This document shows, one piece after another, positions 9,936-36,671 of a DNA stretch of 64,000 bases (its first letter is position 1; every line of letters starts with the position of its first letter). The position numbers and the translations under genes are program-made. Below the pieces are notes generated by a model. That model did not search any database. It had not been told where the DNA came from and was given only the letters and a program-made list of their open reading frames with translations. The DNA is taken from UHGV virus genome UHGV-0212524; one strand, given 5' to 3'. This stretch comes from a virus.

Positions 9936-10717
9936 TGGCAGTTGTCGGCGTAGGTGGTTGGATTGGTTCTTCAGCAAAAGCTGAAACTGGTAACGATTGG
10001 ATGTCTGGCGCGATGCGCACACTTGGTGTGCCGGTTCCAGGCTGGATGTCGCAATTGGCGGGAAAATCAAAAGAGGTTCAGTATTCGATCGGGGCTAATC
10101 ACAATTACAATAAAGATACGCTTATTAACTATTTACGTTCTATAGGCTCTAATGCTGTCGTTGTGACCATTACAGGGGATTTAGTGTCTTATAGTAGCGG
10201 GGTTCCTTGTTTAGAATTCCCTAGCAATCTTCCAAATTCGTATATTACACTCATCATCAATCCTGGGGTTACAGTATACGGCAGAGGAGGCAACGGCGGT
10301 TCTAACTCACCAGGCGGTGCAGGTGGAACCGCAATACAGAACGGAATAGGAAACAGACTGCGTATAACCAACCGTGGCGCTATTGCCGGAGGCGGTGGCG
10401 GCGGTGGCGGCGGTAACAGGGGTAGACTAATATTTGGTGGTGGCGGTGGTCGCCCATTCGGTGCTGGTGGGTCTTCCTCACATATGAGTTCCGGTGCAGC
10501 TGCTGGTACTATTTCCGCTCCTGGTAGAGGATCTGTTGGTGAGGGGTCTCTTAGTGCATATACAGGCGGTTCGGGTGGTAATGTCGGTGCTGCTGGAGGA
10601 AGATGTAATACTCATGGTAACGGTACAGAATATAACGGCGGAGCCGCTGGTGCAGCCGTTAGAGGTAATGCGCCAAGATGGGACGCAGTAGGTGCAATAT
10701 ATGGTTCACGTGTTTAA
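9935..10717 (+). CDS. glycine-rich protein, possibly fibre-associated (260 aa)
   Basis: TAATG stop/start overlap with the fibre gene; poly-Gly tracts (GGGGGGGGGNRG); N-terminus paralogous to the next gene. Confidence 0.55.
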   Translation: MAVVGVGGWIGSSAKAETGNDWMSGAMRTLGVPVPGWMSQLAGKSKEVQYSIGANHNYNKDTLINYLRSIGSNAVVVTITGDLVSYSSGVPCLEFPSNLPNSYITLIINPGVTVYGRGGNGGSNSPGGAGGTAIQNGIGNRLRITNRGAIAGGGGGGGGGNRGRLIFGGGGGRPFGAGGSSSHMSSGAAAGTISAPGRGSVGEGSLSAYTGGSGGNVGAAGGRCNTHGNGTEYNGGAAGAAVRGNAPRWDAVGAIYGSRV

Positions 10718-10777
10718 TTTGAAAAAGTATGGGGATACTCACTCCCCTCCTCACACCTTTCAAAAGGATAGGGTATA

Positions 10778-11281
10778 ATGGGGGTAGCATCTGGATGGGT
10801 CGGTTCTTCGGCCAAGAACGAAACGGGCGAACAATGGATGAGTGCTGCTGGTAGTAAATTAGGATTGGGTAGACCTTTTATGATGAGTCAAATGGTGGGC
10901 CGATCTCTTGGCTGTAAAATCGCAACTGCTGCATATAGCGATTCAATGGCTAAATTTTGGGGTGCGGTGGGACCAAACTGGCCGTTAGCGCAGAAAAATA
11001 AAGGGACTATTCAGAATCCTGGTAGCTGCGGCGTAGGCACACTTATTGGTATCCAACTACTATTGATCACATTGGCTGCTGATGCAAAACCAAGTTTAGC
11101 GGTCTATTTACAAGGTGGGAGAGCTTCTAACATCACCGTAAATCTAGGCGGCAACACTTGTACGGTAGCCTATCAGCAGGTTATTAATGGTCAACATTAT
11201 TACTGGACCTCTAACATTAGCACTGCTTTCCAAAACGTGATGAAATCAACCGGCACATTAAGAGATTTGAAGATTAGTTAA
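10778..11281 (+). CDS. hypothetical protein, N-terminal paralog of the glycine-rich protein (167 aa)
   Basis: MGVASGWVGSSAKNETGEQWMSAAG versus MAVVGVGGWIGSSAKAETGNDWMSGA. Confidence 0.55.
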   Translation: MGVASGWVGSSAKNETGEQWMSAAGSKLGLGRPFMMSQMVGRSLGCKIATAAYSDSMAKFWGAVGPNWPLAQKNKGTIQNPGSCGVGTLIGIQLLLITLAADAKPSLAVYLQGGRASNITVNLGGNTCTVAYQQVINGQHYYWTSNISTAFQNVMKSTGTLRDLKIS

Positions 11282-22888: not shown

Positions 22889-23368
22889 TTATTCTACCGG
22901 GTGCAACATAGTGCCGGTATCCGGAATGCTGCCTTCGTGACATCTGAAGAACGTTACACCTTTACCTTCACCCGTTTTGTAGTTGACGGTAGAATACGCA
23001 AACGTTGGGGTTTTCGACAGTAACCCGTTTACACGGTAATAGCGCTCACCGGTAACAACGTTTAAGTTACCGTCCACCTTGCCTAACAGGTCTTTATAAA
23101 GTTGCGGAGATTCAATTTTACCTTCGTCCCATGTAGCGACCCAATTCGCCCCTGTATCCATGACTAACACCGAAAGGGGCATCAGTTTTAGGCTAGACGG
23201 TACCGGTTTAAAATCGTCGAATTCTTGAGAAGCAGCTGTACAGGTGTAAATGACCATATCGTGTTGGTCAACAGGTACGGTGGAGAACTGACCTTCTGCG
23301 TTCGGCTGAATAGCACAACTTGCCAATGTCATTACAAAAGCAACGACCACGAGAATGCGTTTTAGCAT
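22889..23368 (-). CDS. lipoprotein (about 159 aa from internal ATG)
   Basis: MLKRILVVVAFVMTLASC gives a signal peptide with lipobox L-A-S-C; track ORF extends to 23428. Confidence 0.6.
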   Translation of the reverse strand: MLKRILVVVAFVMTLASCAIQPNAEGQFSTVPVDQHDMVIYTCTAASQEFDDFKPVPSSLKLMPLSVLVMDTGANWVATWDEGKIESPQLYKDLLGKVDGNLNVVTGERYYRVNGLLSKTPTFAYSTVNYKTGEGKGVTFFRCHEGSIPDTGTMLHPVE

Positions 23369-23506
23369 AATCTCACCCTTATTAAAATTAAGAAAAATTA
23401 ATTTTTTCAGGTTAGCGCCTACTGCCAACCGTCATATCTATATTTTAGGAAATGTCTAAAATAACATTCTTATGCAATCCACCCCTACCACTTACGAGGT
23501 AAAAAG

Positions 23507-24043
23507 ATGGCTAAAACCTTCAAACTGCAGTTCGTCGAAGCTGTAATTGCTAAAAACCCAGGAACCGCTTCTAATCTGACGGTTGATGATGTCGATTTTG
23601 GTGCTGTCGAAGCGCACAGCGGTACCGGTGGTCGTAACACCAAAATTACGCTGACCGCCAAGGCAGAAAGCCAGAACTTCAAAGGCGAGAAAGAATTCCA
23701 CTACATTCGTCTGGCTTCTCAAGACCTGATCGGTGCCAAAGCTTACGAAAAAGCCGGTAGCCTCGATCTGGAAAACTCTGCCATTGTAACCAAACTGAAC
23801 GAAGAAATGGTTACTAAAGGTTATGTCGATGACTATTTCGCTGAAAGCGAACTGACCATTGAGAAAACTGACGGGGATAGTGGTGCTAAAGTTTACACTG
23901 TCAAAGTAAACGATGCACACATTAAATTCCTGGCTGGTACTATTGCCACCTTCACTTATTCCAACCCAGCTCCTGAGAAGGTAGCGCTGAGCGGTCTGGA
24001 AGGTGAACTTGATGGCTTCACTGCACCGGGTGTCGGTGGCTAA
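23507..24043 (+). CDS. hypothetical protein, paralog family B (178 aa)
   Basis: Paralog of the next gene (both contain NFKGE and end in DGELDGFTA); codon usage visibly biased (ctg/ggt/acc). Confidence 0.6.
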   Translation: MAKTFKLQFVEAVIAKNPGTASNLTVDDVDFGAVEAHSGTGGRNTKITLTAKAESQNFKGEKEFHYIRLASQDLIGAKAYEKAGSLDLENSAIVTKLNEEMVTKGYVDDYFAESELTIEKTDGDSGAKVYTVKVNDAHIKFLAGTIATFTYSNPAPEKVALSGLEGELDGFTAPGVGG

Positions 24044-24112: not shown

Positions 24113-24643
24113 ATGGCCGCTACTAACCAGATGATGTTGGTCGCGCTTTATAATGCTGCTAACGCTGAGCTACCGCATCAGATTACAGATAAAGAAGTGT
24201 CCTTTGGTCTCCCTACTGCGCTGGAAGGCGAAAGTAAGAATACCAAAGTTACCATGACCGCACTACCGGGTTCTGAGAATTTCAAAGGCGAAATCGAACT
24301 GCATTACGATCGTCTGGAGCCGGGTGTTGTAGGACGGATTGAACTAACTGACGATCTGTCTCGTTGGGTTCAAGAAAATGAACTCCGCGCTTGGTTACAG
24401 CTATACATCAACAAAGTAAAACCTGACGACGCTATCGCGCCAGGTGACGTTGTGTACAGCACCGAAGACCAGAAAGACGAACATGAAAACGTCACTCTGC
24501 GTACCGTGACATGCACCGTTACTGAACAGAACCTCCGTTATAAACCGGGTGTAATGGCAACTTTCGTAATTACACCGAAGGTAGTCGATAATCGTATTGA
24601 CCTGGCCACCACCGACGGTGAATTGGACGGTTTTACTGCTTAA
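24113..24643 (+). CDS. hypothetical protein, paralog family B (176 aa)
   Basis: Paralog of the 23507..24043 product. Confidence 0.6.
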   Translation: MAATNQMMLVALYNAANAELPHQITDKEVSFGLPTALEGESKNTKVTMTALPGSENFKGEIELHYDRLEPGVVGRIELTDDLSRWVQENELRAWLQLYINKVKPDDAIAPGDVVYSTEDQKDEHENVTLRTVTCTVTEQNLRYKPGVMATFVITPKVVDNRIDLATTDGELDGFTA

Positions 24644-24680: not shown

Positions 24681-24716
24681 TACCTACCTCCTTTACGGAG
24701 GTAGGTATTTTTTATT
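24681..24716. terminator. bidirectional terminator
   Basis: tacctacctcc tttac ggaggtaggta followed by ttttttatt; abuts the stop of the convergent minus-strand gene. Confidence 0.7.
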
Positions 24717-25386
24717 CTAATCCCATTTCCAGCGCAAGTGCACGGATCGTGTCGTAGTCACGCTGTTCGGCGTACTGACGAATTTCACTTTTCTGGGCAG
24801 ACATCGCGTTGTGTAGCTGTTGGTCACGTTTCACAATAGCCGCCATTAACGCTTTACATTGCTCCAGCGTAAACGGTTCTATACGTGTATTCGACGTGTC
24901 CAGCCAATAATCCGGTGCAGTTTCAGACTGGATATATTGACCCAGCATCTGACGAGAGGTTTCATCCGCTTGGAAATGATGGCCGTCAACTTCGATATAA
25001 CCGTGACGCTGGTCTTCGTATCGGTGTTCAATTTCCAACATGATTTTCTGGATATCTAAATAGATATAGCGAGACGTCGAGCGCATATTCGAACGAATCT
25101 CGTCCAGGTTAATCTCCAGAACGTCAGTAATGAATTCTTTTGCTTTGTTCAGTGTAAACTTCGCCTCAATAGGAGACATTTCGTAAGTTTGCATCTGAGC
25201 TAAAGCTTCTTCATCACTCATCCCTTCAATCAACTTATAGTGCAGTAATGCACAGAACCCCGTACGACCACGGTCTTCGTTACCTACACGTTCCATGTAG
25301 TTACCGTGGCGGTCAATTGGCAGATCGTGCGCGAAATAACGCGCCCGAATCTCTTCTTTCGTTAAGCTTTTGTTAGAAGCAGACAT
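24712..25386 (-). CDS. hypothetical protein, last gene of the radical-SAM cluster (224 aa)
   Basis: Intact ORF; overlaps the upstream gene by about 25 nt; no motif recognised. Confidence 0.55.
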   Translation of the reverse strand: MSASNKSLTKEEIRARYFAHDLPIDRHGNYMERVGNEDRGRTGFCALLHYKLIEGMSDEEALAQMQTYEMSPIEAKFTLNKAKEFITDVLEINLDEIRSNMRSTSRYIYLDIQKIMLEIEHRYEDQRHGYIEVDGHHFQADETSRQMLGQYIQSETAPDYWLDTSNTRIEPFTLEQCKALMAAIVKRDQQLHNAMSAQKSEIRQYAEQRDYDTIRALALEMGLE

Positions 25387-25952
25387 TCTTCTTCTCCAAC
25401 CATACCTAATTCTTGCAGCAAGCCAAAATCAACCAACTGGAAGGTTTCAGAGAGATCGTTTGACCACACCACGTTTGCAATGTCGCGTTCTTCATCCGTT
25501 AACTGTGGTAACACATTTTCGTTGAACGTCTGATGCTCTACGTAATAAGCATCGTAGATAGACGTAGAACGCAAGCAACGGATTGGCAGACGCGGGAAAG
25601 ACACCGCTAATGCAGCAATAGATGCGCTACTCGGATTCTCCGCAGAATAACGAAGCAATTCGATCTTGTGGCGTGGGTAATCCAGTACGCGTTGTTCGAA
25701 ACCCGGATTACGTTTTTCGATTTCCACAACGGACTCATGGCCTGTCTCTGTACAGTAAACGGGAATCATCACGTTTAGCCCGTACTTAATCAACAGAGGT
25801 TTAATCTCATCTGTAAAGTCTTCACCAGGGATAATGGCGTGAACGTTATAGAGTTTGTGTTTGCGCAGAAAACGCTCAACCAGGTGGAGTTTACGCTTCG
25901 TAAAATTGTGGATCAGAATTGATTTCATTATTTGCCTCAGTAGGTTGTGCAT
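25362..25952 (-). CDS. hypothetical protein in the radical-SAM cluster (196 aa)
   Basis: Intact ORF overlapping both neighbours (start may be the internal Met at 25928). Confidence 0.5.
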   Translation of the reverse strand: MHNLLRQIMKSILIHNFTKRKLHLVERFLRKHKLYNVHAIIPGEDFTDEIKPLLIKYGLNVMIPVYCTETGHESVVEIEKRNPGFEQRVLDYPRHKIELLRYSAENPSSASIAALAVSFPRLPIRCLRSTSIYDAYYVEHQTFNENVLPQLTDEERDIANVVWSNDLSETFQLVDFGLLQELGMVGEEECLLLTKA

Positions 25953-27225
25953 TTAACGCACGTTTAGCTTGCTCACGCTCACGCGTACATTTCGGACAGT
26001 AACAAACAGACGAATCGTGCAGTGACGATGCGTGGACGGTGCCTGTACGTTGACGCCAGTATTCTGCCGCCATCAGTTTTGCGGTCGTCCAACCACATTG
26101 ACGTCGTTCAGCGTGGTACGCCTTACGGTCTTCCAGTGTCCCTTCACCGTTTTCGTAGGAAGCAGCTGCACAGCTCCCACAACCGTGTTTCATCGGACAA
26201 CCTAAGCACGTTTCAGGATAGTTGGTGTATTGCGTCTGAATCTCTTCCAGCAGTTTCCCGCCGTCTAAGCTAACAAACTCACGACCGACTAACTCAAACA
26301 CCGCAGAGCGTGACGTTACCGTTGACATGAATCGGTTACAACCATACACCTTACGGTCAAAACCTAAACAAGTCATAAACGTCAACGTCCCACAGAACGG
26401 ACGTAAACGTTCAGGGTTATAACGGTGCGTGTCGTCGTACAGCAGTTTATCACGCCAATCTGGGTCCCAAATCTGACGGAAATCCAGACCTTCAGGAATG
26501 ATGTGGGACAACACGTTACGTGGATTGGTGTGCAGCCCTTTCTCAATCCAATAATCCATCACCTCGATCATCTGCAACGCAATATCCGTTGCCATGCTCC
26601 GTGGAAGGATATCTTCGTACGTCACGTTACCCGAAATCGTACCACCACCCGCAATATCGATTAACGACTTCATACTCGCCGCGTAATGCGGGAGGGTTTC
26701 GGTTGTAAAGGTTGCCTTGATACCCAGTTCAGCAATACCCACTTCTTTTAAGTAGTTATAGCCACGAACAGCGGCTTCGTAAGAACCCTGACGCGTCGTG
26801 GTAAAGATACGATAACGGTCATGGACTTCTGGCAGCCCGTCGATAGACACACCGATGGAGAGTTTGTCTTTCCAACGCTCGACGATCTCACGGTTTAACG
26901 GACGGTCTAACAACGTCCCGTTCGTGGAGATACTGAACATATACGGTCGATTATGCTCCTTACACAACTGTTCTGCGGTTTCAAACGCCGCTAACAGCAG
27001 TTTCGGTTGCATAAAAGGTTCGCCGCCGATGATATCAATAATGACGTCGATGTTCGGAATATCTTTATCACGCTCAAAACAGGCGTGTAAGAAATCCACG
27101 ATATCCGCCGCTTTGTTATTACGCGGATACTTACGTTCGTAACAATACTCACAGTCTAAGTTACAAGACAGGTTCGTTACCACCTGGTAAGTACGTTGTG
27201 AACGTGGTGCTTCATTATTGCTCAT
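25891..27225 (-). CDS. radical SAM enzyme with SPASM-like C-terminal Cys-rich domain (444 aa)
   Basis: N-terminal CNLDCEYC (CxxxCxxC binding site for the SAM-cleaving 4Fe-4S cluster); C-terminal cysteines (CLGCPMKHGCGSC ... CYCPKC) typical of auxiliary-cluster SPASM/twitch domains. Confidence 0.8.
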   Translation of the reverse strand: MSNNEAPRSQRTYQVVTNLSCNLDCEYCYERKYPRNNKAADIVDFLHACFERDKDIPNIDVIIDIIGGEPFMQPKLLLAAFETAEQLCKEHNRPYMFSISTNGTLLDRPLNREIVERWKDKLSIGVSIDGLPEVHDRYRIFTTTRQGSYEAAVRGYNYLKEVGIAELGIKATFTTETLPHYAASMKSLIDIAGGGTISGNVTYEDILPRSMATDIALQMIEVMDYWIEKGLHTNPRNVLSHIIPEGLDFRQIWDPDWRDKLLYDDTHRYNPERLRPFCGTLTFMTCLGFDRKVYGCNRFMSTVTSRSAVFELVGREFVSLDGGKLLEEIQTQYTNYPETCLGCPMKHGCGSCAAASYENGEGTLEDRKAYHAERRQCGWTTAKLMAAEYWRQRTGTVHASSLHDSSVCYCPKCTREREQAKRALNAQPTEANNEINSDPQFYEA

Positions 27226-28132
27226 CTTTGCTTATCCTTTTACGCTCTGCATAAATCACGCGTTTAATGTACTCGTAAGCACCTACCCCGATAGAGCAAG
27301 CAAGCTGATTGCACCCACCGTTTAAGATAGCCGGTGCATTCTGAAGCTGATGTTCTGTTCCATCTGCGTTCAAATACAACTCTTCGCTACAGACATTACA
27401 CTCGTTTTCGAAAATCTTGCTGACAGACACGCCGCACGATTCTCCGGTTTGGACGTTCAGCCGTTCCATATTCTCCTGAATCTTTAAATAACCATAAACG
27501 AAGTTCATGATGTGATCGGGAGACAACGGTTTTGGCATTTGGGCATCAAACATCAGAGAAAACGCACGGGGACGATAGTGGTACATCGCACGATGTAAAT
27601 CCACAATATCTTCATACCAGCGCTTATCGGCTAACTGGTCACGCGTAATCACAGCCCAGGTTTGGAAGTTATCGAGTTCGTATAACGCTTCCAGTGCTTC
27701 GTGGCTATCCTCTTCAATAAAGCGCATAAAAGGGCGCTCAGAACGTTTGTAGCCATCAATTGATACAAACACATGCTCAAAGTCTTTTAGCAGCGTAAGA
27801 TGCGATTTACGCAGTTTTAAGCCGTTGGTATACAAGTGATGCTCAAGGTGCGGATGAGACACTTTCAGTTCGTTAACGAAATCCTCAATCTTACGTTGGA
27901 CGAGTAGCGGTTCACCACCCGTCCAATGTATTTCCTTAATAGCTGGATTCTCTTGTAGTAATTCCAGGATACGTTCGCGTTGAAAAGCACGAGACGAATC
28001 TTCACGATTCATGTAGTAGGCTCCACCGCAGAAACTACAGTCTAGGTTACACTTAGACGTCGTAACTACGGACAATATAGTGGGTTTATCGTACAACTTC
28101 GTCGAGATCCTGGATTCCACATTGTCTATCAT
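27215..28132 (-). CDS. radical SAM enzyme (305 aa)
   Basis: TSKCNLDCSFCGG (CxxxCxxC) and GGEPLL glycine-rich motif; C-terminal cysteines (CNVCSEE, GGCNQLAC); 11-nt overlap with the downstream radical SAM gene. Confidence 0.75.
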   Translation of the reverse strand: MIDNVESRISTKLYDKPTILSVVTTSKCNLDCSFCGGAYYMNREDSSRAFQRERILELLQENPAIKEIHWTGGEPLLVQRKIEDFVNELKVSHPHLEHHLYTNGLKLRKSHLTLLKDFEHVFVSIDGYKRSERPFMRFIEEDSHEALEALYELDNFQTWAVITRDQLADKRWYEDIVDLHRAMYHYRPRAFSLMFDAQMPKPLSPDHIMNFVYGYLKIQENMERLNVQTGESCGVSVSKIFENECNVCSEELYLNADGTEHQLQNAPAILNGGCNQLACSIGVGAYEYIKRVIYAERKRISKDEQ

Positions 28133-28152
28133 TGCAGGTTGCTCCAGTATTT

Positions 28153-29040
28153 TTAAATATAATCGATGGCGAATAAAGGATCTTCGTCGAAGTTAACACC
28201 GGGTTTTAAAATCAGTGGCGAATTATACGCTTCCAGTAAACGGTTAAGTTCGTTGTAGCGGCTATTCATCCGTTTGAGGTCTTCTAAGGTCACAACACGG
28301 TCAAGCATCGGCTTAACTGCTTCGGCTTCTTCGTCAGTCAGTTTAACTTTCGACAGCAAGAAGCTGACGAGTTTGGAAATGTCCGCTTCGGTAGCTGGGC
28401 TCTGACCAAAACGTACCTGAACCATATGCTGCATCCACGGTTTACGAATGCGTTTCGTAATCACGTGTTCGTCAGTGATGGCTTTCCAAACCGAACGTTC
28501 ACGAATCCATTCGAACTTATAGCTGTACGCCATTAAGTCGGCCAGATGCGTAATTCCGAGTTCTTGATAGCCTTCAATATCGATATACGGTTCCGTATCA
28601 AAATACTCTTTGGTATCTTTTTCAACCAACGCGTAATAGTTAGGGAACGCACCCAGGTAGTCTGGACTCCACCAACGACGGGCCATTGGTTTAGCATCGA
28701 GTTCTTCAAACGGTGTGAACATAAGTTCTAAGTCAACTGTATTATTTAACACACCGTCGCTAAAGAAATATTTACCGTCGATAAGTTTACCGCGTTGTGA
28801 GTTGTCACCGGTAAAGACAACGATGCTTTCGCCAACCATATCACGAATTTTGAACGTATTCTCAACCGTAAAGTTGTCACGATTAGCGATATGACGACCA
28901 CGCACTTTCGGCCATTCCCCAGGAATCATGGCAATTAAGCGTACATCATCAGCAAGATGGTGACGTACCGAATCAGGGGAAGAGATGTGAAGTGGATGAT
29001 TGAACGTTGTCGTATATGCAAGATGTAGATCGTTCTTCAT
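28153..29040 (-). CDS. hypothetical protein in the radical-SAM cluster (295 aa)
   Basis: Intact ORF between the peptide genes and the radical SAM genes; no motif recognised. Confidence 0.55.
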   Translation of the reverse strand: MKNDLHLAYTTTFNHPLHISSPDSVRHHLADDVRLIAMIPGEWPKVRGRHIANRDNFTVENTFKIRDMVGESIVVFTGDNSQRGKLIDGKYFFSDGVLNNTVDLELMFTPFEELDAKPMARRWWSPDYLGAFPNYYALVEKDTKEYFDTEPYIDIEGYQELGITHLADLMAYSYKFEWIRERSVWKAITDEHVITKRIRKPWMQHMVQVRFGQSPATEADISKLVSFLLSKVKLTDEEAEAVKPMLDRVVTLEDLKRMNSRYNELNRLLEAYNSPLILKPGVNFDEDPLFAIDYI

Positions 29041-29161: not shown

Positions 29162-29371
29162 TTACCTGCCTCCCCCTGCACCTTTACTACAGCTACCACT
29201 GCACGCCCAGCTACAACTCCCATTACAGTTATAGTGAGTTAACGGTAATCCTGCCAAGTTATTCGTTGAGGACACCGTACCCTGATTAGCAATATAGTTA
29301 TTCGCATCTGTGGTTTTAATGTAGCCTTCAACCTGACCGATTCTGTCTCGAATATTTTTGAGGGAAATCAC
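29162..29371 (-). CDS. Cys-rich leader-core peptide, short paralog (69 aa)
   Basis: Leader MISLKNIRDRIGQVE... then HYNCNGSCSWACSGSCSKGAGGGR; paralogous to the two longer peptides. Confidence 0.6.
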   Translation of the reverse strand: MISLKNIRDRIGQVEGYIKTTDANNYIANQGTVSSTNNLAGLPLTHYNCNGSCSWACSGSCSKGAGGGR

Positions 29372-29381
29372 TTCTCACCTC

Positions 29382-29777
29382 CTATCGTCCTGTGCACGAC
29401 GAGCAGCCACCGGTACAGCTACTGGAGCACGATGCTGTACAGCCGCCCGTACAAGTGCCCGAGCACGCATTAGCGCACCCACCCGAACAACTCCCCGAAC
29501 ACCCTGAACAGCTACTTGAACACCCTGACGTACAGTTTGCAGAGCATGAAGAACCGCAACCACCAGACGCGTTCCCTGTACAGCCACCAGAGCAACTCGA
29601 GCAGGTAAAGGAACACGTGCCCGCACAGTCATAATGCGCACGATTCCGACCACCGAACAGGTCCGCGTTATTCGTGGCCTTATTGCGGATGTAGTTCTGT
29701 ACACCTGTGGTGTTTTTCAGCGCGATACTATCGACGTTATTAAGACGTCTTACTAATTCAGCTAATCCAACCGCCAT
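29382..29777 (-). CDS. Cys-rich leader-core peptide, RiPP precursor-like (131 aa)
   Basis: About 48-aa leader then a core of about 25 Cys in a C-x2-3-C ladder (CAGTCSFTCSSCSGGCTGNASGGCGSSC...CTGR) with only Cys/Ser/Gly/Thr/Ala/Asn. Confidence 0.65.
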   Translation of the reverse strand: MAVGLAELVRRLNNVDSIALKNTTGVQNYIRNKATNNADLFGGRNRAHYDCAGTCSFTCSSCSGGCTGNASGGCGSSCSANCTSGCSSSCSGCSGSCSGGCANACSGTCTGGCTASCSSSCTGGCSSCTGR

Positions 29778-29786
29778 TTCTTCCCC

Positions 29787-30179
29787 CTATCGACCAGAGC
29801 AACCGCCGGAGCAAGCACCCGAACAGTTATGCGAACAACGCCCAGTACAACTTCCAGTACAGGTACTTGTACAACTGCTAGAACAAGCCCCCGAGCAGCC
29901 AGAGCATCCCGAACAGTTGCCCCCACAGGACGAAGAGCAGCTACCCACGCACGACGCTGAACAGTTTCCTGAACAGCTCGAGCAACCGTGAGTACATCCG
30001 TTAGAACATGTCCACGAACACGCTCCTCCGCAGTCTAAACGCGAAGGCGTCCAACCGGAAAACGAATCTGCCGCGTTATGCGCTTTCGATGCGACCTGCG
30101 CATTGACACGAGGGCCGGTAGCGACTGTATTTTCTACTGTGGTTAACCGATCGCGCATTTGTTTAACACTAATCGCCAT
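29787..30179 (-). CDS. Cys-rich leader-core peptide, RiPP precursor-like (130 aa)
   Basis: Leader MAISVKQMRDRLTTVEN... then CGGACSWTCSNGCTHGCSSCSGNCSASC...CSGR; RBS aaggaag upstream. Confidence 0.65.
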   Translation of the reverse strand: MAISVKQMRDRLTTVENTVATGPRVNAQVASKAHNAADSFSGWTPSRLDCGGACSWTCSNGCTHGCSSCSGNCSASCVGSCSSSCGGNCSGCSGCSGACSSSCTSTCTGSCTGRCSHNCSGACSGGCSGR

Positions 30180-30203
30180 TACGCTTCCTTAAAATTAAAA
30201 TAG

Positions 30204-30235
30204 AGGAGGAACCAGCCATAAGCATAGTTCCTCCT
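30204..30235 (-). terminator. hairpin between the fibre gene and the Cys-rich peptide genes (terminator or attenuator)
   Basis: On the minus strand aggaggaac ...loop... gttcctcct followed by ctattttaatttt. Confidence 0.45.
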
Positions 30236-30244
30236 GTAATTAAA

Positions 30245-31450
30245 TTATTTCGTACCCGCTTCCGCCTGTACGTCATCACGAGACGTCAGGTTAGCGTTAA
30301 CGTGTACTGGGGCCTGAACCACACCACCGTATCTCTTGTGGAGATAACCGGTGTGCGGGTTATCTGCCGCGATGTGGTTTTGTAGGTTCTGGTTCGCTTG
30401 ACTGATTGCGTTCGTGTTATTGTTAACTTGCTGTTTAAGCGCATCCAGGTTCTGTTGTACCTGATCGATTTTCTGATCGGTTTCTTGACCCTGTTGCTCT
30501 AACGCGGCAACACGCTGAATAACCTGATTCAGTTTTGTGTTTAAATCGTTGATGCTCTTTTGCAGTTGTAACACTAACGAGTTCAGGTTCGCTAACGCTA
30601 AGGCCATTTTCTGGTAGTTTTGAGCAACCACGTTAAGTTGGTCGTTCCACGCTTCCAGAGAGTTGACAACAGCGTCAATACGCTTACCTAAAGCTTCGTC
30701 CGCTTTCTTCAGTGCATTGATTTCCGTAATCGTTGCGTCGATGGCAGACTGGACGTCACGAATAAGCGCACGGATTTCAGTTTCTGTTAACCCGTTAACC
30801 TGATGAATATCAAGATGGTGAACGTTACCGGTTGCGTTGATGTGTGCATTTAAAGCGTCTAAGAAGTCATTTTTCAGGCTTTCTAAAATCGCTTTAATGT
30901 TCTCTAACTGTACCGCGTCACCGGAACTGATCGCATCTTTAATACCCGCCAATACGGTAATGATATATTCAAAACCGTAGATGTCACCCACGTCTTTATA
31001 CGTCGGTGCAGATGGGAATGTATCCGGTACGTTACGCAGGTCTTTAAACGCAATCGTACGGTTATCGAGGTTTAATTCAGCAATCGCCTGTTCGATAGCC
31101 ACAATGTTCGCAGACTGTGGACCACCAACGACCTGCGCAGATACCGTAATATCTGTTGGAATCGCTGTGTTAGTGACCACCACCGCCATAACAATCTCGC
31201 GGTTTTTAGTCAGCTTTTCATAAGTCGGGTGTGCAAAAATCAACTCATAATCGGTACCACGTTCGTAGGTTGCATCCGGTCGGTTAGCAACACGTAAACG
31301 GAACGTGTCCGCAAAGAACGGGCCGTCAGGAAAAGCAAAAGCACGGTTTACTTTACCTGTACCTAACGTAATCTGACGCTCTACAGCGTTAGACGTTAGC
31401 GAGCCCGTTAAATCTAAAGGATATTGATAAACAATGGAGGCCATGGCCAC
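30245..31450 (-). CDS. short coiled-coil fibre protein with shared fibre N-terminal anchor motif (401 aa)
   Basis: N-terminal FPDGPFFADTFRLRV...GTDYELIF matches the anchor motif of the three large fibres; the C-terminal 200 aa is heptad-rich (LNSLVLQLQKSINDLNTKLNQVIQRVAALEQQ). Confidence 0.65.
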   Translation of the reverse strand: MAMASIVYQYPLDLTGSLTSNAVERQITLGTGKVNRAFAFPDGPFFADTFRLRVANRPDATYERGTDYELIFAHPTYEKLTKNREIVMAVVVTNTAIPTDITVSAQVVGGPQSANIVAIEQAIAELNLDNRTIAFKDLRNVPDTFPSAPTYKDVGDIYGFEYIITVLAGIKDAISSGDAVQLENIKAILESLKNDFLDALNAHINATGNVHHLDIHQVNGLTETEIRALIRDVQSAIDATITEINALKKADEALGKRIDAVVNSLEAWNDQLNVVAQNYQKMALALANLNSLVLQLQKSINDLNTKLNQVIQRVAALEQQGQETDQKIDQVQQNLDALKQQVNNNTNAISQANQNLQNHIAADNPHTGYLHKRYGGVVQAPVHVNANLTSRDDVQAEAGTK

Positions 31451-31484: not shown

Positions 31485-34400
31485 TTAAGATGTAAACATA
31501 AGATTGAACTGGAGTTTGTCGATATCGCGAGTTTCCGCCGGATTCACGGCATCGTACGCGGTCGCTACGTAAACGGTTAGCGTACCGTTAGCGTAAGACG
31601 ATTTCACCGGTGGGTTAGTTCCGGTCTGACCATCTCGGACAATGAGCGTAGGTTCACTCGGGAGATTGTCAAACTGACCCTTGACCGCTTTATACACCAA
31701 ACCAGATTGCGCAGCCAGTTCAGTGTCCGTAAAGACAAAGAACGGTGTGTCGATATCAGCCTGCTTGACGATGGTGTTCGATTCAACGTCAATCAACTGT
31801 ACCGCCCCAAACTTCGTACGATAACTTTCATACTCGTTCTTCGGAATAACGAACGTGACATGAACACGAACCTCCTCGGCAGGTTTAAACCCACTGTGCT
31901 CTTTTTCCAGGTACTGGTTGGCGGTTAACGTTACCGTTTGTTCAGTCATCGTACCACCGGCCTGGTTTAATGCATACCGAGCTTCAACAATACCGGTTGG
32001 TGCAGCAAGTCGTAGTTTCAGAGCACGATTCGCCGTTCCTGGATTACCTGGCACCTGAACACGCAAACTCAATGCTAAGTAAGCATTCGTTCCGGTAGTC
32101 GGTTTCGTATACGCACCAATCCATTTCATGTTCGCAGACGCTGCCTGCATGTTCTCAGAAGCAGTGGCTGTCGCAATGTTAGCAGCTACCGCTTTCTGCC
32201 AGAATTGGTCAGCGCAGTTCTCATACGCTACCCTGGCCACGCTCTTATAACCCGAATACGTTTCCTGAATTGGTAACTTAGGACGCGTCGTAATGCCGGA
32301 CAGTGAACCCCATTTCTGACCGTCAACATACCCTTCACCTTTCGACGCAGACGCCGTAGGTGCTTTAACGGGCTTGTTAACCAGTGTTAATAGAGGACCC
32401 GTCTTTCTGTCAAACGCTGCTGCTACATCGTGTTGGTCGATAATTGCTGCGTGGTCTTCCAGTTCTTTCACACGACCCAAACGTTTTACTTTGTCGATAC
32501 TGATACCAGTAATACGGCTGGAATCGGTGGTTACTGTCCCAACGAACAGTCTTGTTGAGGTATCGGCTAACTGCTCCAAACCGATGCGGTATTGCGCGGT
32601 AGAACCCGACACCTCAGCGTGCACGTAGAACGTCTGGTTAGCGTGATTGGATGGGAACTCACTGCTTAAATCCACAGACCACGTTGGGAGTGTGTAACTG
32701 CTGCTACCGAAATCTAATTTGACTTCTTCTGTCAAATACAGAATCCAACCTTCCGCTGTTTCCACACCGGCAATAATAACCGCCTGACCTCCGGTTGAGA
32801 ACGTCGTGTCGTTAACGAACTCTGCGGCTGTATACGCGTTACCTGAACAGAAAACACGGTCAGCTTTAGAGTAAATCAACGCCATCTTGTCCCAATCACC
32901 GGCACCCATATAGCACCCAGATTCTGGTCTATGTTCAGGGGCCATCTGCCGTAACTGTGATTTACCTGCAACGCGTGTCCAACCTGAACCAGGGTCGAAG
33001 GTATATTTAGCAGCGTAGCCCAGGGCGTTTAAGTCCCCGATATTTCGGGTAGTTAACGTATAAGGTAACCAGATACCGAAGTTAGTTCCATCCGCAGATG
33101 CAAAAATAGGCTGCCCCACGCGCCTCGTTTTACCTCCCGCTCCCCCATTTAGTGACTGATAACTTAAACCATAATCGAGGTCTAAGAACCAGTCCACCAA
33201 CTTAAAGGTGGCTGAGTTGAAACGTAAGTAGCCGTTCTCTTTAGATGGGCTCACCATGAAGTAATAGATGTCAAGAATTCGACGTCCGTTACTTGAGGTT
33301 TTCATGCACGAAACTTGCAACAAGTCAAATTCGCACACGGTGTTGATACCCAACATCCAAAGAGCAAACAATGCATTACCGGTTTGATGTGCAGCACTAA
33401 TACGTTCGTTCGCGTAACCATTTGCTTGACCAGATGGCGCACCGTCAACGATCATCCGAATCATTTTCTGCCGATCGGCTTCTTCTAGCGTTAAGCGTTC
33501 GGAAGACAATGCGAAGTTACCGTAGATGTTACGATACGGGAACGTTTCTGCTTTGGTCAAATACCAGCCGTTCAACTGTCCATGACGCTCCTCAGGGATC
33601 ATGCACGCAGCCATACAGCTAAGCTGCTCGTAAAGCGTTGGATCGACTTCACGACGGTTGTTGTTCGGACCGTACCCACTATACCCAGAAACATCGTAAG
33701 GTTTGTTCGGATCAACTTCCACTTCGATCGTGTAACGGTTACGAGGGTTCGATAACCAGACCTTATTCGAACCACCAATCCCTACTGGATAAGACAAACC
33801 GATGGTGTAAATGGAGCCACGGCCTTTATCCCAGGTAAACGTTCCTTCGCCCGAGGTGTTGTTTGGGTTATCGTAACGCAGATAATCGAAAAGCTCTCTG
33901 CCTTGTGTACTCTTAATAGAAACATTAGGCATTTGGTCCGCATCGGCAATTTGCCAACAGGAAAGCATCATTCCTGTACCGTTGGGTTTAGCATACGTCG
34001 CGAAACAACGGTTGTTTGCCTGGCCACCACCCCACTTACGATTGGTTCCTACAGTTGAACCATCTGCGAACGAGAGTGTAGTAGTAGCATCAGCCTTGAT
34101 GGGGAAGCGTTCGCGGCCTTCTAACGTAACCTTGCCCGTCAACGTATCGATTGTAAAACTTGTTGCCCATTGAAGGAAATTAATCGTCGTACCGTCGGCC
34201 GCTGCAAACCACACGGTAGGCATATGGTTCACACGAATCACGCTATCGCGCACAGCACACGCGTGGTTACATTCTGGACCGTGAACAAAGTTACGCCCGA
34301 TCGTCCATTTAGCACGACCCTCCGGTGTGAGATATGTAAAGAATTGACCCGTTTGCGACTCTTCGGTTTTCTGACCAATACGCAAGCAGAGGTTATCTCC

Positions 34401-36671
34401 GAATTGTCCCATCTCGCCGGTTAGAGTTACACGTTCAAATTCTAACGTAGTGTTAGTAGACAAATCGGCCTTACGTAGACGCCAAGCTGCTACGGCGTAA
34501 GCGGAGTTATTTACCGTTGAACGGAGAAGATAAACGTAGTCCTCAACCAACACGACATCGTCAGCTTCCGGCCACGGGTTCCAGGTTTGTTCCACAGTAC
34601 CACTGGGGTTGCCGTTACGGTACACGGGCATCGTAACGCGACATACCACCGTGTGCTTAGTGTGGTCCATCGAGCCATTAAACAGCACCAAATAACGGTT
34701 ATTGTCAGAACCCAGGCAAATAATCGCTTCCTGGCCACCGATCAATATCGCTATTAGGGTCACCCCAGGATATTTACTCATCCCGGCAGGGTGATATTTC
34801 ACTGAGGTCTGCTGCGGATTTACAAACGCGTTTGACGTGTCAATGTCAGCATAGCCGTAATAAATAGCTTCCGTACCCGGCACGCCGTTAGAACCGTTAC
34901 GGAGCGAATAAACCTTACCCTGCTGATACCCAACAACCCCTTTCTGGTAGGACTGGTTTTTGGTATAGCCTGCGTAGTTACCTAACGCTGGGATAGGTAA
35001 GAAGTTCTTGTTACCGAATTTCGCTCCACCTACCGTCCACGCCGGTAAGATGGTATTCAGTTTATCAGAGACCTTCTTAATCTCTTTTGCGAACAACCAG
35101 CCTTGACGCGACGTGACAGCTTTATCGTTAGTGGTGTCAATTGCATCCCAGAGCTGTAAGATACCGTCAACCGTTGCACTACCAATCGGGACGTTATCCA
35201 AGTCAGCAGTGGTGTGGGTGTGCGTTTTCAAACTCTTGTTTTTCAACACGTTCGTTAACGCTTTTGTCACAGGCTTATCACTCGGTATGGTGTTATCCAT
35301 CTTATCGATACCGAAATCGGTTTTCGTTAAGGTTAACACCATATTGTCGCCTGTTTTAACAAACCCTTTACCGTTAACGGTATAGTCATCGTCAACGTAC
35401 AAGTCCAAGCGGTCTTTTAATTCTGTTACAGCTTTCTGGGAGATAGCAGTACCTAACGCCGCAGACGTAGAGATATTCGTAATCGAGAACAACCCATAAA
35501 CTGATTCGGACGCCGTGGGAATATTCGCGTTTAACGTAACCGGGTTAGTCTGTTTTGCGGTACCGTACGGTTTTACAGTGTCTGACGCTTTGAAATACGC
35601 GTTTGCTTCAAGCAACGTTACTGACGTCAGATACATGTTCACCATTTCTGGTGTAACCAGGTACACGGAGTTATAAACTGGCGCTAATACGTCCTGTTCC
35701 GACCCCGAGTGAACCCAAAGCGTATTCAGACCCGCACTGAATTCAACCGCTAAACCCGATTCGTTGTTGTCCTGGTCTGCTTTAATCACCAACGGTTGTG
35801 GCGAGGTAATTAACCACTTATCACCACGAATACTGATGATGTGGCCACCTGACGTTTTAAACGTTAATTCATTACCGTTCGTGGTACCCCATCGACCGTA
35901 AACGGTGCCGAGGGCTTCACCCATTAACTGGTCAACGTCCGATTGCTCAATACCCGCTGAACCCATCAGCGTAGCCAACTCGTCAATCGTCAACCCAAAC
36001 GCTTTTGTAGCGTCAACAGCACGACCTAATACCGGGAGAGCAGCAATGTCATCAGTGGTATAATGATGCGCGTTAGGGTTACGGTGATGCTGGTATAACT
36101 CTTCGTCGAAAACCTTTTTACCGTTCTCGTAAATCAAGTTAGTGACTTCACTGAACGCAGCATCTAATTCCGTAGAACGTTTGATGATTTTCTTGCGAAT
36201 GTCTTCTAACGCCTTAACAACCTCATCCCTCAGAATCGCTTCTTCTAAGTTAGCAGGCGGGTCGATAGGCTGAATAACCGGCGCATACGCCATTAGTTCA
36301 GACCAGTCCACGTTACGTGGGTCTTTCAGGTCAGTACGAACTAAGAACTTCCCGATTTCAGATTGCGGTACACGGTATTGACGTGCTACCCCTAAAATCT
36401 CATATTCGATTTCTGTTGCAGTAAGCAACATAAACCCGCCGTAAATCTGATCTTGTTCAGCTTCTGCGAGTTCTTTAAAGTAATAGCCTAAATAGTAGTC
36501 CAACCCCTCAATCAGAGTACGACGTCCGTTAGGCGCGGTATCGTCGGCTACTGTGAGTTTTAATCCGATACGATAAAAAGGTCCTTCAGGCGGAATGACC
36601 ACGTTAAATCGGTTAGGGTACGTCGCTGTGCTTAGCGTACCGTTAAACTGCGCCGCGTCTTCTCTCGGCAT
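31485..36671 (-). CDS. large tail fibre or tail spike protein (1728 aa)
   Basis: N-terminal anchor motif PPEGPFYRIGLKLTV...GLDYYLGY shared with neighbouring fibres; size and position in the structural block. Confidence 0.7.
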   Translation of the reverse strand: MPREDAAQFNGTLSTATYPNRFNVVIPPEGPFYRIGLKLTVADDTAPNGRRTLIEGLDYYLGYYFKELAEAEQDQIYGGFMLLTATEIEYEILGVARQYRVPQSEIGKFLVRTDLKDPRNVDWSELMAYAPVIQPIDPPANLEEAILRDEVVKALEDIRKKIIKRSTELDAAFSEVTNLIYENGKKVFDEELYQHHRNPNAHHYTTDDIAALPVLGRAVDATKAFGLTIDELATLMGSAGIEQSDVDQLMGEALGTVYGRWGTTNGNELTFKTSGGHIISIRGDKWLITSPQPLVIKADQDNNESGLAVEFSAGLNTLWVHSGSEQDVLAPVYNSVYLVTPEMVNMYLTSVTLLEANAYFKASDTVKPYGTAKQTNPVTLNANIPTASESVYGLFSITNISTSAALGTAISQKAVTELKDRLDLYVDDDYTVNGKGFVKTGDNMVLTLTKTDFGIDKMDNTIPSDKPVTKALTNVLKNKSLKTHTHTTADLDNVPIGSATVDGILQLWDAIDTTNDKAVTSRQGWLFAKEIKKVSDKLNTILPAWTVGGAKFGNKNFLPIPALGNYAGYTKNQSYQKGVVGYQQGKVYSLRNGSNGVPGTEAIYYGYADIDTSNAFVNPQQTSVKYHPAGMSKYPGVTLIAILIGGQEAIICLGSDNNRYLVLFNGSMDHTKHTVVCRVTMPVYRNGNPSGTVEQTWNPWPEADDVVLVEDYVYLLRSTVNNSAYAVAAWRLRKADLSTNTTLEFERVTLTGEMGQFGDNLCLRIGQKTEESQTGQFFTYLTPEGRAKWTIGRNFVHGPECNHACAVRDSVIRVNHMPTVWFAAADGTTINFLQWATSFTIDTLTGKVTLEGRERFPIKADATTTLSFADGSTVGTNRKWGGGQANNRCFATYAKPNGTGMMLSCWQIADADQMPNVSIKSTQGRELFDYLRYDNPNNTSGEGTFTWDKGRGSIYTIGLSYPVGIGGSNKVWLSNPRNRYTIEVEVDPNKPYDVSGYSGYGPNNNRREVDPTLYEQLSCMAACMIPEERHGQLNGWYLTKAETFPYRNIYGNFALSSERLTLEEADRQKMIRMIVDGAPSGQANGYANERISAAHQTGNALFALWMLGINTVCEFDLLQVSCMKTSSNGRRILDIYYFMVSPSKENGYLRFNSATFKLVDWFLDLDYGLSYQSLNGGAGGKTRRVGQPIFASADGTNFGIWLPYTLTTRNIGDLNALGYAAKYTFDPGSGWTRVAGKSQLRQMAPEHRPESGCYMGAGDWDKMALIYSKADRVFCSGNAYTAAEFVNDTTFSTGGQAVIIAGVETAEGWILYLTEEVKLDFGSSSYTLPTWSVDLSSEFPSNHANQTFYVHAEVSGSTAQYRIGLEQLADTSTRLFVGTVTTDSSRITGISIDKVKRLGRVKELEDHAAIIDQHDVAAAFDRKTGPLLTLVNKPVKAPTASASKGEGYVDGQKWGSLSGITTRPKLPIQETYSGYKSVARVAYENCADQFWQKAVAANIATATASENMQAASANMKWIGAYTKPTTGTNAYLALSLRVQVPGNPGTANRALKLRLAAPTGIVEARYALNQAGGTMTEQTVTLTANQYLEKEHSGFKPAEEVRVHVTFVIPKNEYESYRTKFGAVQLIDVESNTIVKQADIDTPFFVFTDTELAAQSGLVYKAVKGQFDNLPSEPTLIVRDGQTGTNPPVKSSYANGTLTVYVATAYDAVNPAETRDIDKLQFNLMFTS

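Follow-up and report, generated by a model that had tools for sequence, protein, structure and literature searches.

What do three uncharacterised genes do when they lie packed around two genes for radical S-adenosylmethionine (radical-SAM) enzymes in a phage genome? The question is raised by virus genome UHGV-0212524, of which a stretch of 64,000 nucleotides was analysed (hereafter the window). Between positions 24712 and 29040, its minus strand holds open reading frames (ORFs) of 295, 196 and 224 aa together with the enzyme genes rSAM1 and rSAM2, and three short Cys-rich genes precede them. The original prediction regarded the three as leader-recognition or peptidase partners of a peptide pathway, or else as unrelated phage genes. 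This peptide-natural-product framing is probably wrong, because in distant relatives the supposed precursor is the C-terminal end of a tail-fibre protein. We propose, with a probability of roughly 0.55 for the reading as a whole, that the three genes are the 3' end of a late tail-fibre operon in an SPN3US-like (Seoulvirus) jumbo phage and belong to a module maturing the fibre tip. The 295-aa protein would be a chaperone/adaptor, the second protein (188 aa after correction of its start) a pseudo-radical-SAM subunit, and the 224-aa protein a fibre chaperone. The genes concerned are as follows.

24712..25386, minus strand: 224-aa protein, homologue of SPN3US gp161, whose N-terminal half is specific to the clade and whose C-terminal half holds DUF4376 (residues 121-210); predicted chaperone of tail-fibre assembly.
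25362..25928, minus strand: 188-aa protein (the 196-aa ORF with its start corrected), phrog_7988, homologue of SPN3US gp162; predicted cluster-less (beta/alpha)6 half-barrel.
25891..27225, minus strand: rSAM1, 444-aa radical-SAM/SPASM enzyme (PF04055) with conserved SPASM cysteines, homologue of SPN3US gp163.
27215..28132, minus strand: rSAM2, 305-aa radical-SAM enzyme with CX3CX2C and three conserved C-terminal cysteines, homologue of SPN3US gp164.
28153..29040, minus strand: 295-aa protein, phrog_8030, homologue of SPN3US gp165; predicted non-catalytic chaperone/adaptor for a Cys-rich fibre tip.
29162..29371, minus strand: 69-aa short protein of the Cys-Xaa3 (CXXX) repeat family, phrog_6085, with only the junction motif Y-x-C-x-G-(S)-C-S-W left; orthologues in CR5, L007 and L013 (loci described below).
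29382..29777, minus strand: 131-aa CXXX-repeat protein, probable radical-SAM substrate, phrog_6085; TIGR04114 at 17.6 bits (cut-off 20).
29787..30179, minus strand: 130-aa CXXX-repeat protein, probable radical-SAM substrate, phrog_6085; TIGR04114 at 19.5 bits (cut-off 20).

The three ORFs were found where they had been predicted, co-oriented on the minus strand, closely packed and partly overlapping. Only the length of the 196-aa ORF was not borne out. Its start is most likely the ninth codon, an ATG at 25928 that gives 188 aa, because all homologues have 185-190 aa and begin with MKS(I/L)L, the phrog_7988 profile alignment begins at residue 9 of the longer ORF, and a GAGG Shine-Dalgarno sequence lies 6 nt upstream of this ATG, with none ahead of 25952. 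Each product matched a PHROG over its whole length: phrog_8030 for the 295-aa protein (E=1.1e-138), phrog_7988 for the 196-aa ORF (E=9.8e-78) and phrog_8169 for the 224-aa protein (E=5e-92).

From 24 to 31.5 kb the window shares ~73-75% DNA identity with Salmonella phage SPN3US and related Seoulvirus jumbo phages, and its minus-strand block corresponds gene by gene to SPN3US gp168 through gp161. By tblastn at a coverage of at least 80%, the 295-, 188- and 224-aa proteins were each detected in 62 phage records (31-74% identity) and rSAM1 in 63. All matches listed were SPN3US-like Salmonella/Escherichia phages, Erwinia jumbo phages and Cronobacter phage CR5; identity was lowest, 31-42%, in CR5 and the Erwinia phages Wellington, Derbicus and Phobos. 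The gene order is the same in SPN3US, pEa_SNUABM_29, CR5 and Wellington.

The genes are spaced by a 20-nt gap between the 295-aa gene and rSAM2, followed by overlaps of 11 nt (rSAM2/rSAM1), 38 nt (rSAM1/188-aa gene) and 25 nt (188-aa/224-aa genes). The last two overlaps are nearly the same in SPN3US, CR5 and Wellington. No terminator-like site was seen on the minus strand from 29040 to 24712. Judged from this arrangement, co-transcription of the block is plausible and translational coupling within it likely. The operon is framed by three further features.

31485..36671, minus strand: baseplate/tail-fibre protein of 1728 aa, homologue of SPN3US gp168; lies upstream and is co-oriented.
30245..31450, minus strand: 401-aa coiled-coil virion protein, phrog_2163, homologue of SPN3US gp167; in L013, too, the module is flanked by a relative.
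24681..24707: strong bidirectional terminator-like hairpin with an 11-bp stem, 3' of the 224-aa gene, closing the minus-strand operon and a convergent plus-strand gene.

The operon thus reads gp168-like fibre, gp167-like coiled-coil virion protein, three CXXX proteins, 295-aa protein, rSAM2, rSAM1/SPASM, 188-aa protein, 224-aa protein and terminator. At 30200-30240 on the minus strand, in the stretch from the 401-aa gene to the first CXXX gene, a GC-rich hairpin of 9 bp (AGGAGGAAC...GTTCCTCCT) was also observed, with a T-rich run after it. As an attenuating terminator or as an element that stabilises the RNA, it could set how strongly the module is expressed.

The best NCBIfam match of rSAM1 was TIGR04115, a CXXX-repeat maturase, although its score of 124.8 bits did not reach the curated equivalog cut-off of 350; PapB followed with 110.8 bits (cut-off 340). 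A match of rSAM1 to HxsB (74.4 bits, cut-off 370) was weak, as was that of rSAM2 to HxsC (47.2 bits, cut-off 267.9), one of several weak and unspecific NCBIfam matches of rSAM2. The three small proteins of 130, 131 and 69 aa are Cys/Ser/Gly-rich; the two long ones consist of CXXX repeats, and the TIGR04114 family that these two approach is described as 'Cys-rich repeat rSAM target'. CXXX proteins have a conserved N-terminal part of ~50 aa, followed by a repetitive Cys-rich core.

What the CXXX proteins and the 295-aa protein have to do with fibres became apparent from distant relatives. A profile search of 1.84 billion representative proteins returned only 43 relatives of the 295-aa protein, sharing mainly its C-terminal ~110 residues, and a scan of genome contigs turned up one Synergistaceae genome assembly and no other. 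In a sample of the 43 representatives the genomic context was inspected. The 295-like gene stood beside radical-SAM genes in every distant relative with enough flanking DNA, and a CXXX repeat was also nearby in all of these loci except L014-16, contigs of ~1.3 kb with only the C-terminal end of rSAM2 upstream. The gene orders were as follows.

L006/7, phage contig encoding terminase and Cpn60: CXXX proteins of 122, 119 and 69 aa, 289-aa protein, rSAM2, rSAM1, 172-aa protein.
L009, short contig: CXXX ORF (cut at the contig end), 260-aa protein, rSAM2-like, rSAM1-like.
L010-12, T7-type fibre: 534-codon open frame with N-terminal Phage_T7_tail (85 bits) and a CXXX/phrog_6085 C-terminal end, rSAM2, 292-aa protein, rSAM1.
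L013, two Peptidase_S74 tail fibres upstream: rSAM1, 177-aa protein, three CXXX proteins (two long and one short of 60 aa), 322-aa protein, rSAM2, gp167-like protein (phrog_2163), endolysin.
L033, 42-kb IMG/VR contig: 470-aa fibre that has tail-fibre PHROG repeats and, at its end, a CXXX tract (read from the sequence), 264-aa protein, rSAM1, lysis genes.
L034, 284-kb jumbo phage: 451-aa fibre (tail-fibre PHROGs) ending in phrog_6085, 241-aa protein, 686-aa rSAM2-rSAM1 fusion, more fibres.
L035, 37.5-kb IMG/VR contig: Tfa-like protein, 267-aa fibre (tail-fibre PHROGs) ending in CXXX/phrog_6085, 295-like protein, rSAM1.
L037, GpJ-like tail protein upstream: fibre-like ORF of 258 aa, rich in repeats and with CXXX at its end (read from the sequence), 277-aa protein, three radical-SAM proteins.
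L039, fibre-like 575-aa gene: 69-aa CXXX mini-ORF overlapping the fibre stop codon, 290-aa protein, rSAM2, rSAM1.
L040, short contig: fibre-like ORF ending in CXXX (read from the sequence), 262-aa protein, radical-SAM protein.

In seven of these loci (L010, L033, L034, L035, L037, L039 and L040) the CXXX repeat is the C-terminal end of a fibre or abuts a fibre gene. The 295-like gene follows directly in six of the seven; in L010, rSAM2 intervenes. From these contexts we infer that the CXXX repeat is a C-terminal module of tail fibres, either fused to the fibre or split off, and that the 295-like gene holds the usual position of a fibre chaperone, often start/stop-coupled to a radical-SAM gene. 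Such a gene overlaps or abuts a radical-SAM gene in many loci: by 4 nt in L009, by 26 nt in L013, by 17 nt in Wellington and on both sides in L010. The distant 295-like proteins of L033 and L034 match phrog_8030 (E=6.5e-6 and E=1.3e-7), and a 295-like protein in the Synergistaceae assembly (L036) is 92% identical to that of L033. Two enzyme arrangements were observed as well: the fusion in L034 (9582-11642), which implies that the two radical-SAM enzymes work together, and three consecutive radical-SAM genes after the 295-like gene in L037 (6840-9668).

Fused and stand-alone CXXX proteins share the motif '...L.G....(H/Y)Y.C.G.CSW.C', and in the fibre-fused ones the phrog_6085 profile aligns from its positions 28-36 onward. 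By these alignments, the N-terminal 'leader' of the stand-alone proteins is homologous to the fibre segment ahead of the repeat. A trio of two long and one short CXXX protein is found in every stand-alone system, and its members are orthologous by type across distant phages. It is located at:

window 29162-30179, minus strand
L004 6512-7539
L007 7034-7995
L013 7010-7990

Its conservation suggests, speculatively, a heterotrimeric mini-fibre or a distinct role for the short chain.

The original prediction had proposed looking for conserved co-occurrence with the radical-SAM genes in related phages. The 295- and 188-aa families are indeed linked to these genes across the Seoulvirus-like clade, and the 295-aa family keeps the link beyond it, in all unrelated phages and prophages whose inspected context offered sufficient flanking DNA. 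A partnership with the radical-SAM and peptide genes was therefore upheld for these two proteins, while the peptidase role found no support: neither has a Pfam or NCBIfam peptidase match, and no invariant polar residue was found across the wide 295-aa family.

The 295-aa protein is 100% identical to a protein on two IMG/VR metagenomic contigs (152 and 221 kb). A word-indexed search gave 45 homologues, all unannotated, whose named sources were SPN3US-like Salmonella/Erwinia phages or Salmonella assemblies. The AlphaFold2 model, a confident one built from a 34-sequence alignment (predicted local distance difference test score (pLDDT) 88.2, predicted template-modelling score (pTM) 0.84), has a beta-rich N-terminal and a helical C-terminal part, and no fold match was found in the PDB or among viral models. 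Across the family the sequence varies in the N-terminal half and is conserved in the C-terminal one. In the wide alignment Met1 is the sole invariant residue and conserved positions are mostly hydrophobic or structural, which argues against an enzyme; no conserved catalytic dyad or triad was present.

Residues 1-11 of the 295-aa protein contain MKN(D/E)xHxAY, near-invariant in the close family yet modelled with pLDDT <50. It may be a short linear motif that docks on a partner, for example a radical-SAM enzyme. Two phage tail proteins were matched by the family profile as well, the 'plug gp18' of the cyanophage Pam3 baseplate (9mjn) and a 'spacer protein' of a phage (9cuy), at E 0.6-1.1 over profile residues ~151-185, a beta-hairpin motif (Y.Y.F.W). 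These matches were sub-threshold and were taken as noise, since none of 34 members had a Pfam counterpart.

Could the cluster nevertheless be a classical one for a ribosomally synthesised and post-translationally modified peptide (RiPP)? In that case a diffusible modified peptide, for instance a toxin or a metal chelator, would be made from the CXXX proteins as leader-core precursors, with the 295- and 188-aa proteins as leader-recognition and/or peptidase partners. Several features fit: the best families of rSAM1 (TIGR04115, PapB, HxsB) are peptide maturases, the conserved N-terminal part and Cys-rich core of the small proteins resemble a precursor, and rSAM1, whose radical-SAM motif begins at residue ~20, lacks an N-terminal RiPP recognition element (RRE) of its own, so that a separate recognition protein would be expected. 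However, no RRE was detected in rSAM1 or the accessory proteins; the 295-aa protein in particular has no RRE or PqqD-like winged-helix fold, no RRE profile match and no conserved catalytic residues. A protease, transporter or immunity gene was missing in Pfam, NCBIfam and PADLOC searches, and the cluster is embedded in a structural operon. Above all, the CXXX tract ends or abuts a tail-fibre protein in the seven loci named above, and the 'leader' aligns with the fibre segment preceding it. We consider a RiPP pathway unlikely.

The virion proteome of SPN3US bears on the remaining roles. Among its entries are gp160 and gp167-173, and gp161-gp166 are all missing (PMC5694885, Supplementary Table 1). 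Since gp161-gp165 are correctly annotated, their absence points to non-structural roles as enzymes or chaperones. For gp166 the situation differs. As deposited, SPN3US_0166 (L001 10456-10791) is an out-of-frame ORF over a real CXXX gene. The true CXXX genes of SPN3US (L001, NC_027402/JN641803) are:

10460-10864, minus strand, equal to JN641803 complement 143413-143817: 134 aa, covered by the deposited gp166.
10875-11267, minus strand, equal to JN641803 complement 143828-144220: 130 aa, unannotated.
10238-10444, minus strand, equal to JN641803 complement 143191-143397: 68 aa, unannotated.

They would be missing from any search database built on the deposited annotation, and if the published proteomics used such a database, the CXXX proteins were undetectable in it because of the wrong annotation. 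Their cores also contain almost no Lys or Arg. The main text of the proteome study places 'gp161' in head-protein paralogue family B, while its tables give gp160 (18.5 kDa) (PMC5694885). The mass fits the 175-aa SPN3US_0160, and 'gp161' is probably a typographical slip, because the 224-aa protein has no similarity to its gp160-like neighbour.

The 295-aa protein might instead be a structural or transient component of the fibre tip, an adhesin or 'chaperone cap' docking on the Cys-rich end, with the radical-SAM enzymes acting independently of it. Its gene often comes right after the CXXX-bearing fibre gene, as do those of T2 gp38-type adhesins and the Alteromonas 'transient chaperone caps', and a variable N-terminal with a conserved C-terminal half is what proteins co-evolving with fibre tips display. 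Against this, SPN3US gp165, although correctly annotated, is not among the listed virion proteins, and the frequent overlap or abutment with a radical-SAM gene suggests stoichiometric co-production with the enzyme. A tip component is thus improbable, and the chaperone/adaptor remains our preferred role for the 295-aa protein.

The 188-aa protein belongs to a narrow family. Its 21 close matches were unannotated or phage 'hypothetical proteins'. The model, again a confident one (pLDDT 88.3, pTM 0.83), shows six sequential beta-alpha units and a small C-terminal sheet. This predicted (beta/alpha)6 half-barrel, a partial TIM barrel, is closest to radical-SAM cores. A CX3CX2C motif or variant of it is absent; C182, the only Cys invariant in the close family, is gone in the homologues of L007 and L013. 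No match to PF04055 or any other Pfam family was obtained for the 14 members tested at E<=10. As a candidate origin, divergence from the neighbouring radical-SAM genes was unsupported at the sequence level: hhalign gave 0.2% against rSAM1 and 2% against rSAM2. The likeness is accordingly structural, and common descent with radical-SAM enzymes is possible on the model.

Gene position links the 188-aa protein to rSAM1. In L007 and L013 its homologues (hhalign probability 95.9%) come directly after rSAM1 with a 1-nt overlap. The gene follows a SPASM radical-SAM gene wherever CXXX proteins stand alone, and no homologue was detected in L033-35, where the substrate is fused to the fibre. Most likely, given the predicted fold, the protein is a cluster-less pseudo-radical-SAM auxiliary subunit of rSAM1, used when CXXX domains are separate chains.

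The original prediction had seen no protease, transporter or methyltransferase signature in the three proteins. This agrees with Pfam, NCBIfam and PADLOC, and PDB sequences, searched with single sequences and with profiles, gave nothing above threshold for the three either, but the 224-aa protein does carry a Pfam domain: its residues 121-210 align with positions 13-101 of the 106 in PF14301 (DUF4376) at 43.3 bits (cut-off 25, E=5.8e-11). The same domain was precomputed for nearly all close homologues, and among the PHROGs the families 'tail protein' and 'tail fiber protein' gave weaker matches. Experiments have established DUF4376 proteins as tail-fibre chaperones in the Alteromonas phages V22 (gp27) and A5 (gp9); H-fibre function of Campylobacter CJIE1 needs a DUF4376 gene downstream of the H-fibre gene; and no radical-SAM gene is listed in the host-recognition modules of V22 and A5 (PMC7289586, PMC10579305, PMC7882524). 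In the window the 224-aa gene shares the same-strand operon of the gp168- and gp167-like fibre genes, but lies ~6 kb downstream of them, after the radical-SAM module.

The full-length 224-aa family is confined to the Seoulvirus-like clade, and in the distant loci L006/7 and L013 its hidden Markov model had no match up to 8 kb from the module. No solved structure was reachable by sequence or profile search of PDB sequences. Two candidate relatives were rejected: the Tfa-like gene beside the CXXX fibre in L035 (hhalign probability 0.3%) and the neighbouring gp160-like head-protein paralogues (no similarity). As far as the domain and operon indicate, the 224-aa protein is a probable DUF4376-type tail-fibre assembly chaperone, and belongs to the fibre operon rather than to the radical-SAM chemistry.

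'Unrelated phage genes', the other option of the original prediction, finds support for the 224-aa protein only, whose domain has an established role in fibre modules devoid of radical-SAM genes and which is missing from the two distant modules with 8-kb flanks, but as an account of all three as mere neighbours it is very improbable, since for the 295- and 188-aa genes the linkage survives rearranged gene orders and unrelated backbones (jumbo phages, T7-like fibre, GpJ contigs, Synergistaceae assembly) and the start/stop overlaps with radical-SAM genes are conserved.

How would a tail-fibre-tip maturation module work? Rather than free peptide precursors, the CXXX proteins would be separate-chain forms of the Cys-rich domain at the C-terminal tip of tail fibres. 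After translation, rSAM1, together with rSAM2 where present, would modify this tip, probably by introducing thioether-type cross-links, as the nearest enzyme families suggest. The 295-aa protein would bind the unfolded Cys-rich fibre end, or the fibre-like segment just ahead of the repeat, keep it soluble and present it to the enzymes, acting as fibre chaperone and substrate-recognition adaptor in one. The 188-aa protein, presumably translationally coupled to rSAM1, would support this enzyme as a non-catalytic subunit and seems to be needed when the CXXX domains are separate. The 224-aa DUF4376 protein would assist fibre assembly.

Several points weigh against this model. Cross-linking, and even modification as such, is deduced solely from the presence of radical-SAM/SPASM enzymes. 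The fold of the 295-aa protein is unlike known fibre chaperones or RRE domains, and its role as chaperone/adaptor is read from gene position and the lack of catalytic residues. CXXX proteins have never been reported in virions, which is uninformative given that SPN3US has them mis-annotated or unannotated. No recognisable fibre genes adjoin the module in L006/7, and the contexts inspected are a sample of the family. Finally, across the whole clade the 188-aa and 224-aa genes are coupled in translation, and a role in the radical-SAM pathway is possible for the 224-aa protein.

More tentatively, and at somewhat less than even odds, we suggest that many tailed phages end their fibres in a Cys-Xaa3-repeat tip cross-linked by phage radical-SAM/SPASM enzymes, with the help of a 295-aa chaperone/adaptor of new fold and, in jumbo phages, of a 188-aa pseudo-radical-SAM protein. 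Such tips would occur in jumbo phages, in phages whose fibres are of T7 type, on contigs that encode a GpJ (lambda J-like) tail protein and in the relatives from the Synergistaceae assembly. Three separate mini-fibre chains, joined as a heterotrimer, may make up the tip in jumbo phages.

Radical-SAM/SPASM enzymes are known for the maturation of small secreted peptides and of the cofactors or cross-links of a few enzymes. We know of no case in which such an enzyme modifies a phage tail fibre. No literature was found that connects radical SAM, SPASM or RiPPs with tail fibres, jumbo phages or SPN3US, or that discusses these genes, within an incomplete coverage that leaves room for an earlier description. 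With the 224-aa protein a known family gains a new member; the 295- and 188-aa proteins are new families attached to a known enzyme type in an unexpected structural setting. If our reading is true, a structural protein of the virion undergoes radical-SAM post-translational modification, and a function is gained for the 'hypothetical' families phrog_8030 and phrog_7988, which are conserved in jumbo phages now studied for biocontrol, those of SPN3US, Erwinia and Cronobacter type. A set of apparent RiPP clusters in viral metagenomes would then be structural maturation modules, and the making of infectious virions would include an oxygen-sensitive step, which bears on phage production and host-range engineering. 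SPN3US, with its amber-mutant genetic toolkit and virion proteomics, is a tractable system in which to test this.

Three further observations were made. On the plus strand, tandem ORFs of 178 aa (23507-24043) and 176 aa (24113-24643) occupy the position of the single SPN3US gp160, which belongs to paralogue family B and is a very abundant protein of the head. Both run convergently to the operon, and a hairpin follows each. Between them and lysis-like genes lies a 179-aa ORF (22889-23428, minus strand), in which a signal peptide and lipobox typical of lipoproteins (MLKRILVVVAFVMTLASC) come after an internal Met; the product is possibly a phage-encoded lipoprotein. Lastly, several SPFM Salmonella phage records hold apparently 'degenerate' copies of the cluster; for SPFM6, natural gene loss was considered and rejected in favour of a deposition artefact. 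The SPFM6 sequence (L017, LR535905.1 94000-106000) matches the window only as pieces of ~60 nt in the right orientation but in reversed order, as if the lines of a FASTA file had been reversed. This accounts for fragmentary protein matches and broken genes in SPFM6, and probably also in SPFM1, 5, 7, 8, 10, 12, 14, 15 and 20.

Among known systems, T4 gp38/gp57A and Peptidase_S74 are likewise non-virion helpers encoded by fibre genes and serving C-terminal fibre folding, and S74 fibres adjoin the L013 module. They have no sequence or fold similarity to the phage proteins described here, and none involves radical chemistry. Closer are the DUF4376 chaperones (V22 gp27, A5 gp9 and the CJIE1 protein, with a reported likeness to Mu Tfa), with which the 224-aa protein shares the domain, a variable N-terminal half, the fibre operon and the absence from virions. 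Its gene differs in lying ~6 kb from the nearest large fibre gene, after the radical-SAM module, and in overlapping the 188-aa gene.

On the enzyme side, the His-Xaa-Ser system HxsB/HxsC also has a SPASM-type and a shorter radical-SAM enzyme side by side with a short-repeat substrate. Scores to it were far below the cut-offs, the phage repeat is one of Cys and not His-Xaa-Ser, and the phage accessory proteins match no NCBIfam family. The PapB-type ranthipeptide/sactipeptide thioether maturases (CteB, SkfB, SCIFF maturase), which include the second-best family of rSAM1, combine radical-SAM and SPASM domains with Cys-rich substrates, as here. They act on short leader-containing peptides, often via an RRE, whereas the phage substrate is fibre-linked. 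Similar too are TIGR04114 and TIGR04115, defined bioinformatically in bacteria, for which, as for the phage system, the literature searched held no experimental description. They are the top families for the long CXXX proteins and rSAM1, and they too place a Cys-Xaa3-repeat substrate beside a SPASM radical-SAM enzyme. All phage scores fall below their cut-offs, and the phage system adds a second radical-SAM enzyme and the 295- and 188-aa families. It also differs in where it is found: the phage module lies in tail-fibre operons, and its repeat often forms the fibre's own C-terminal end.

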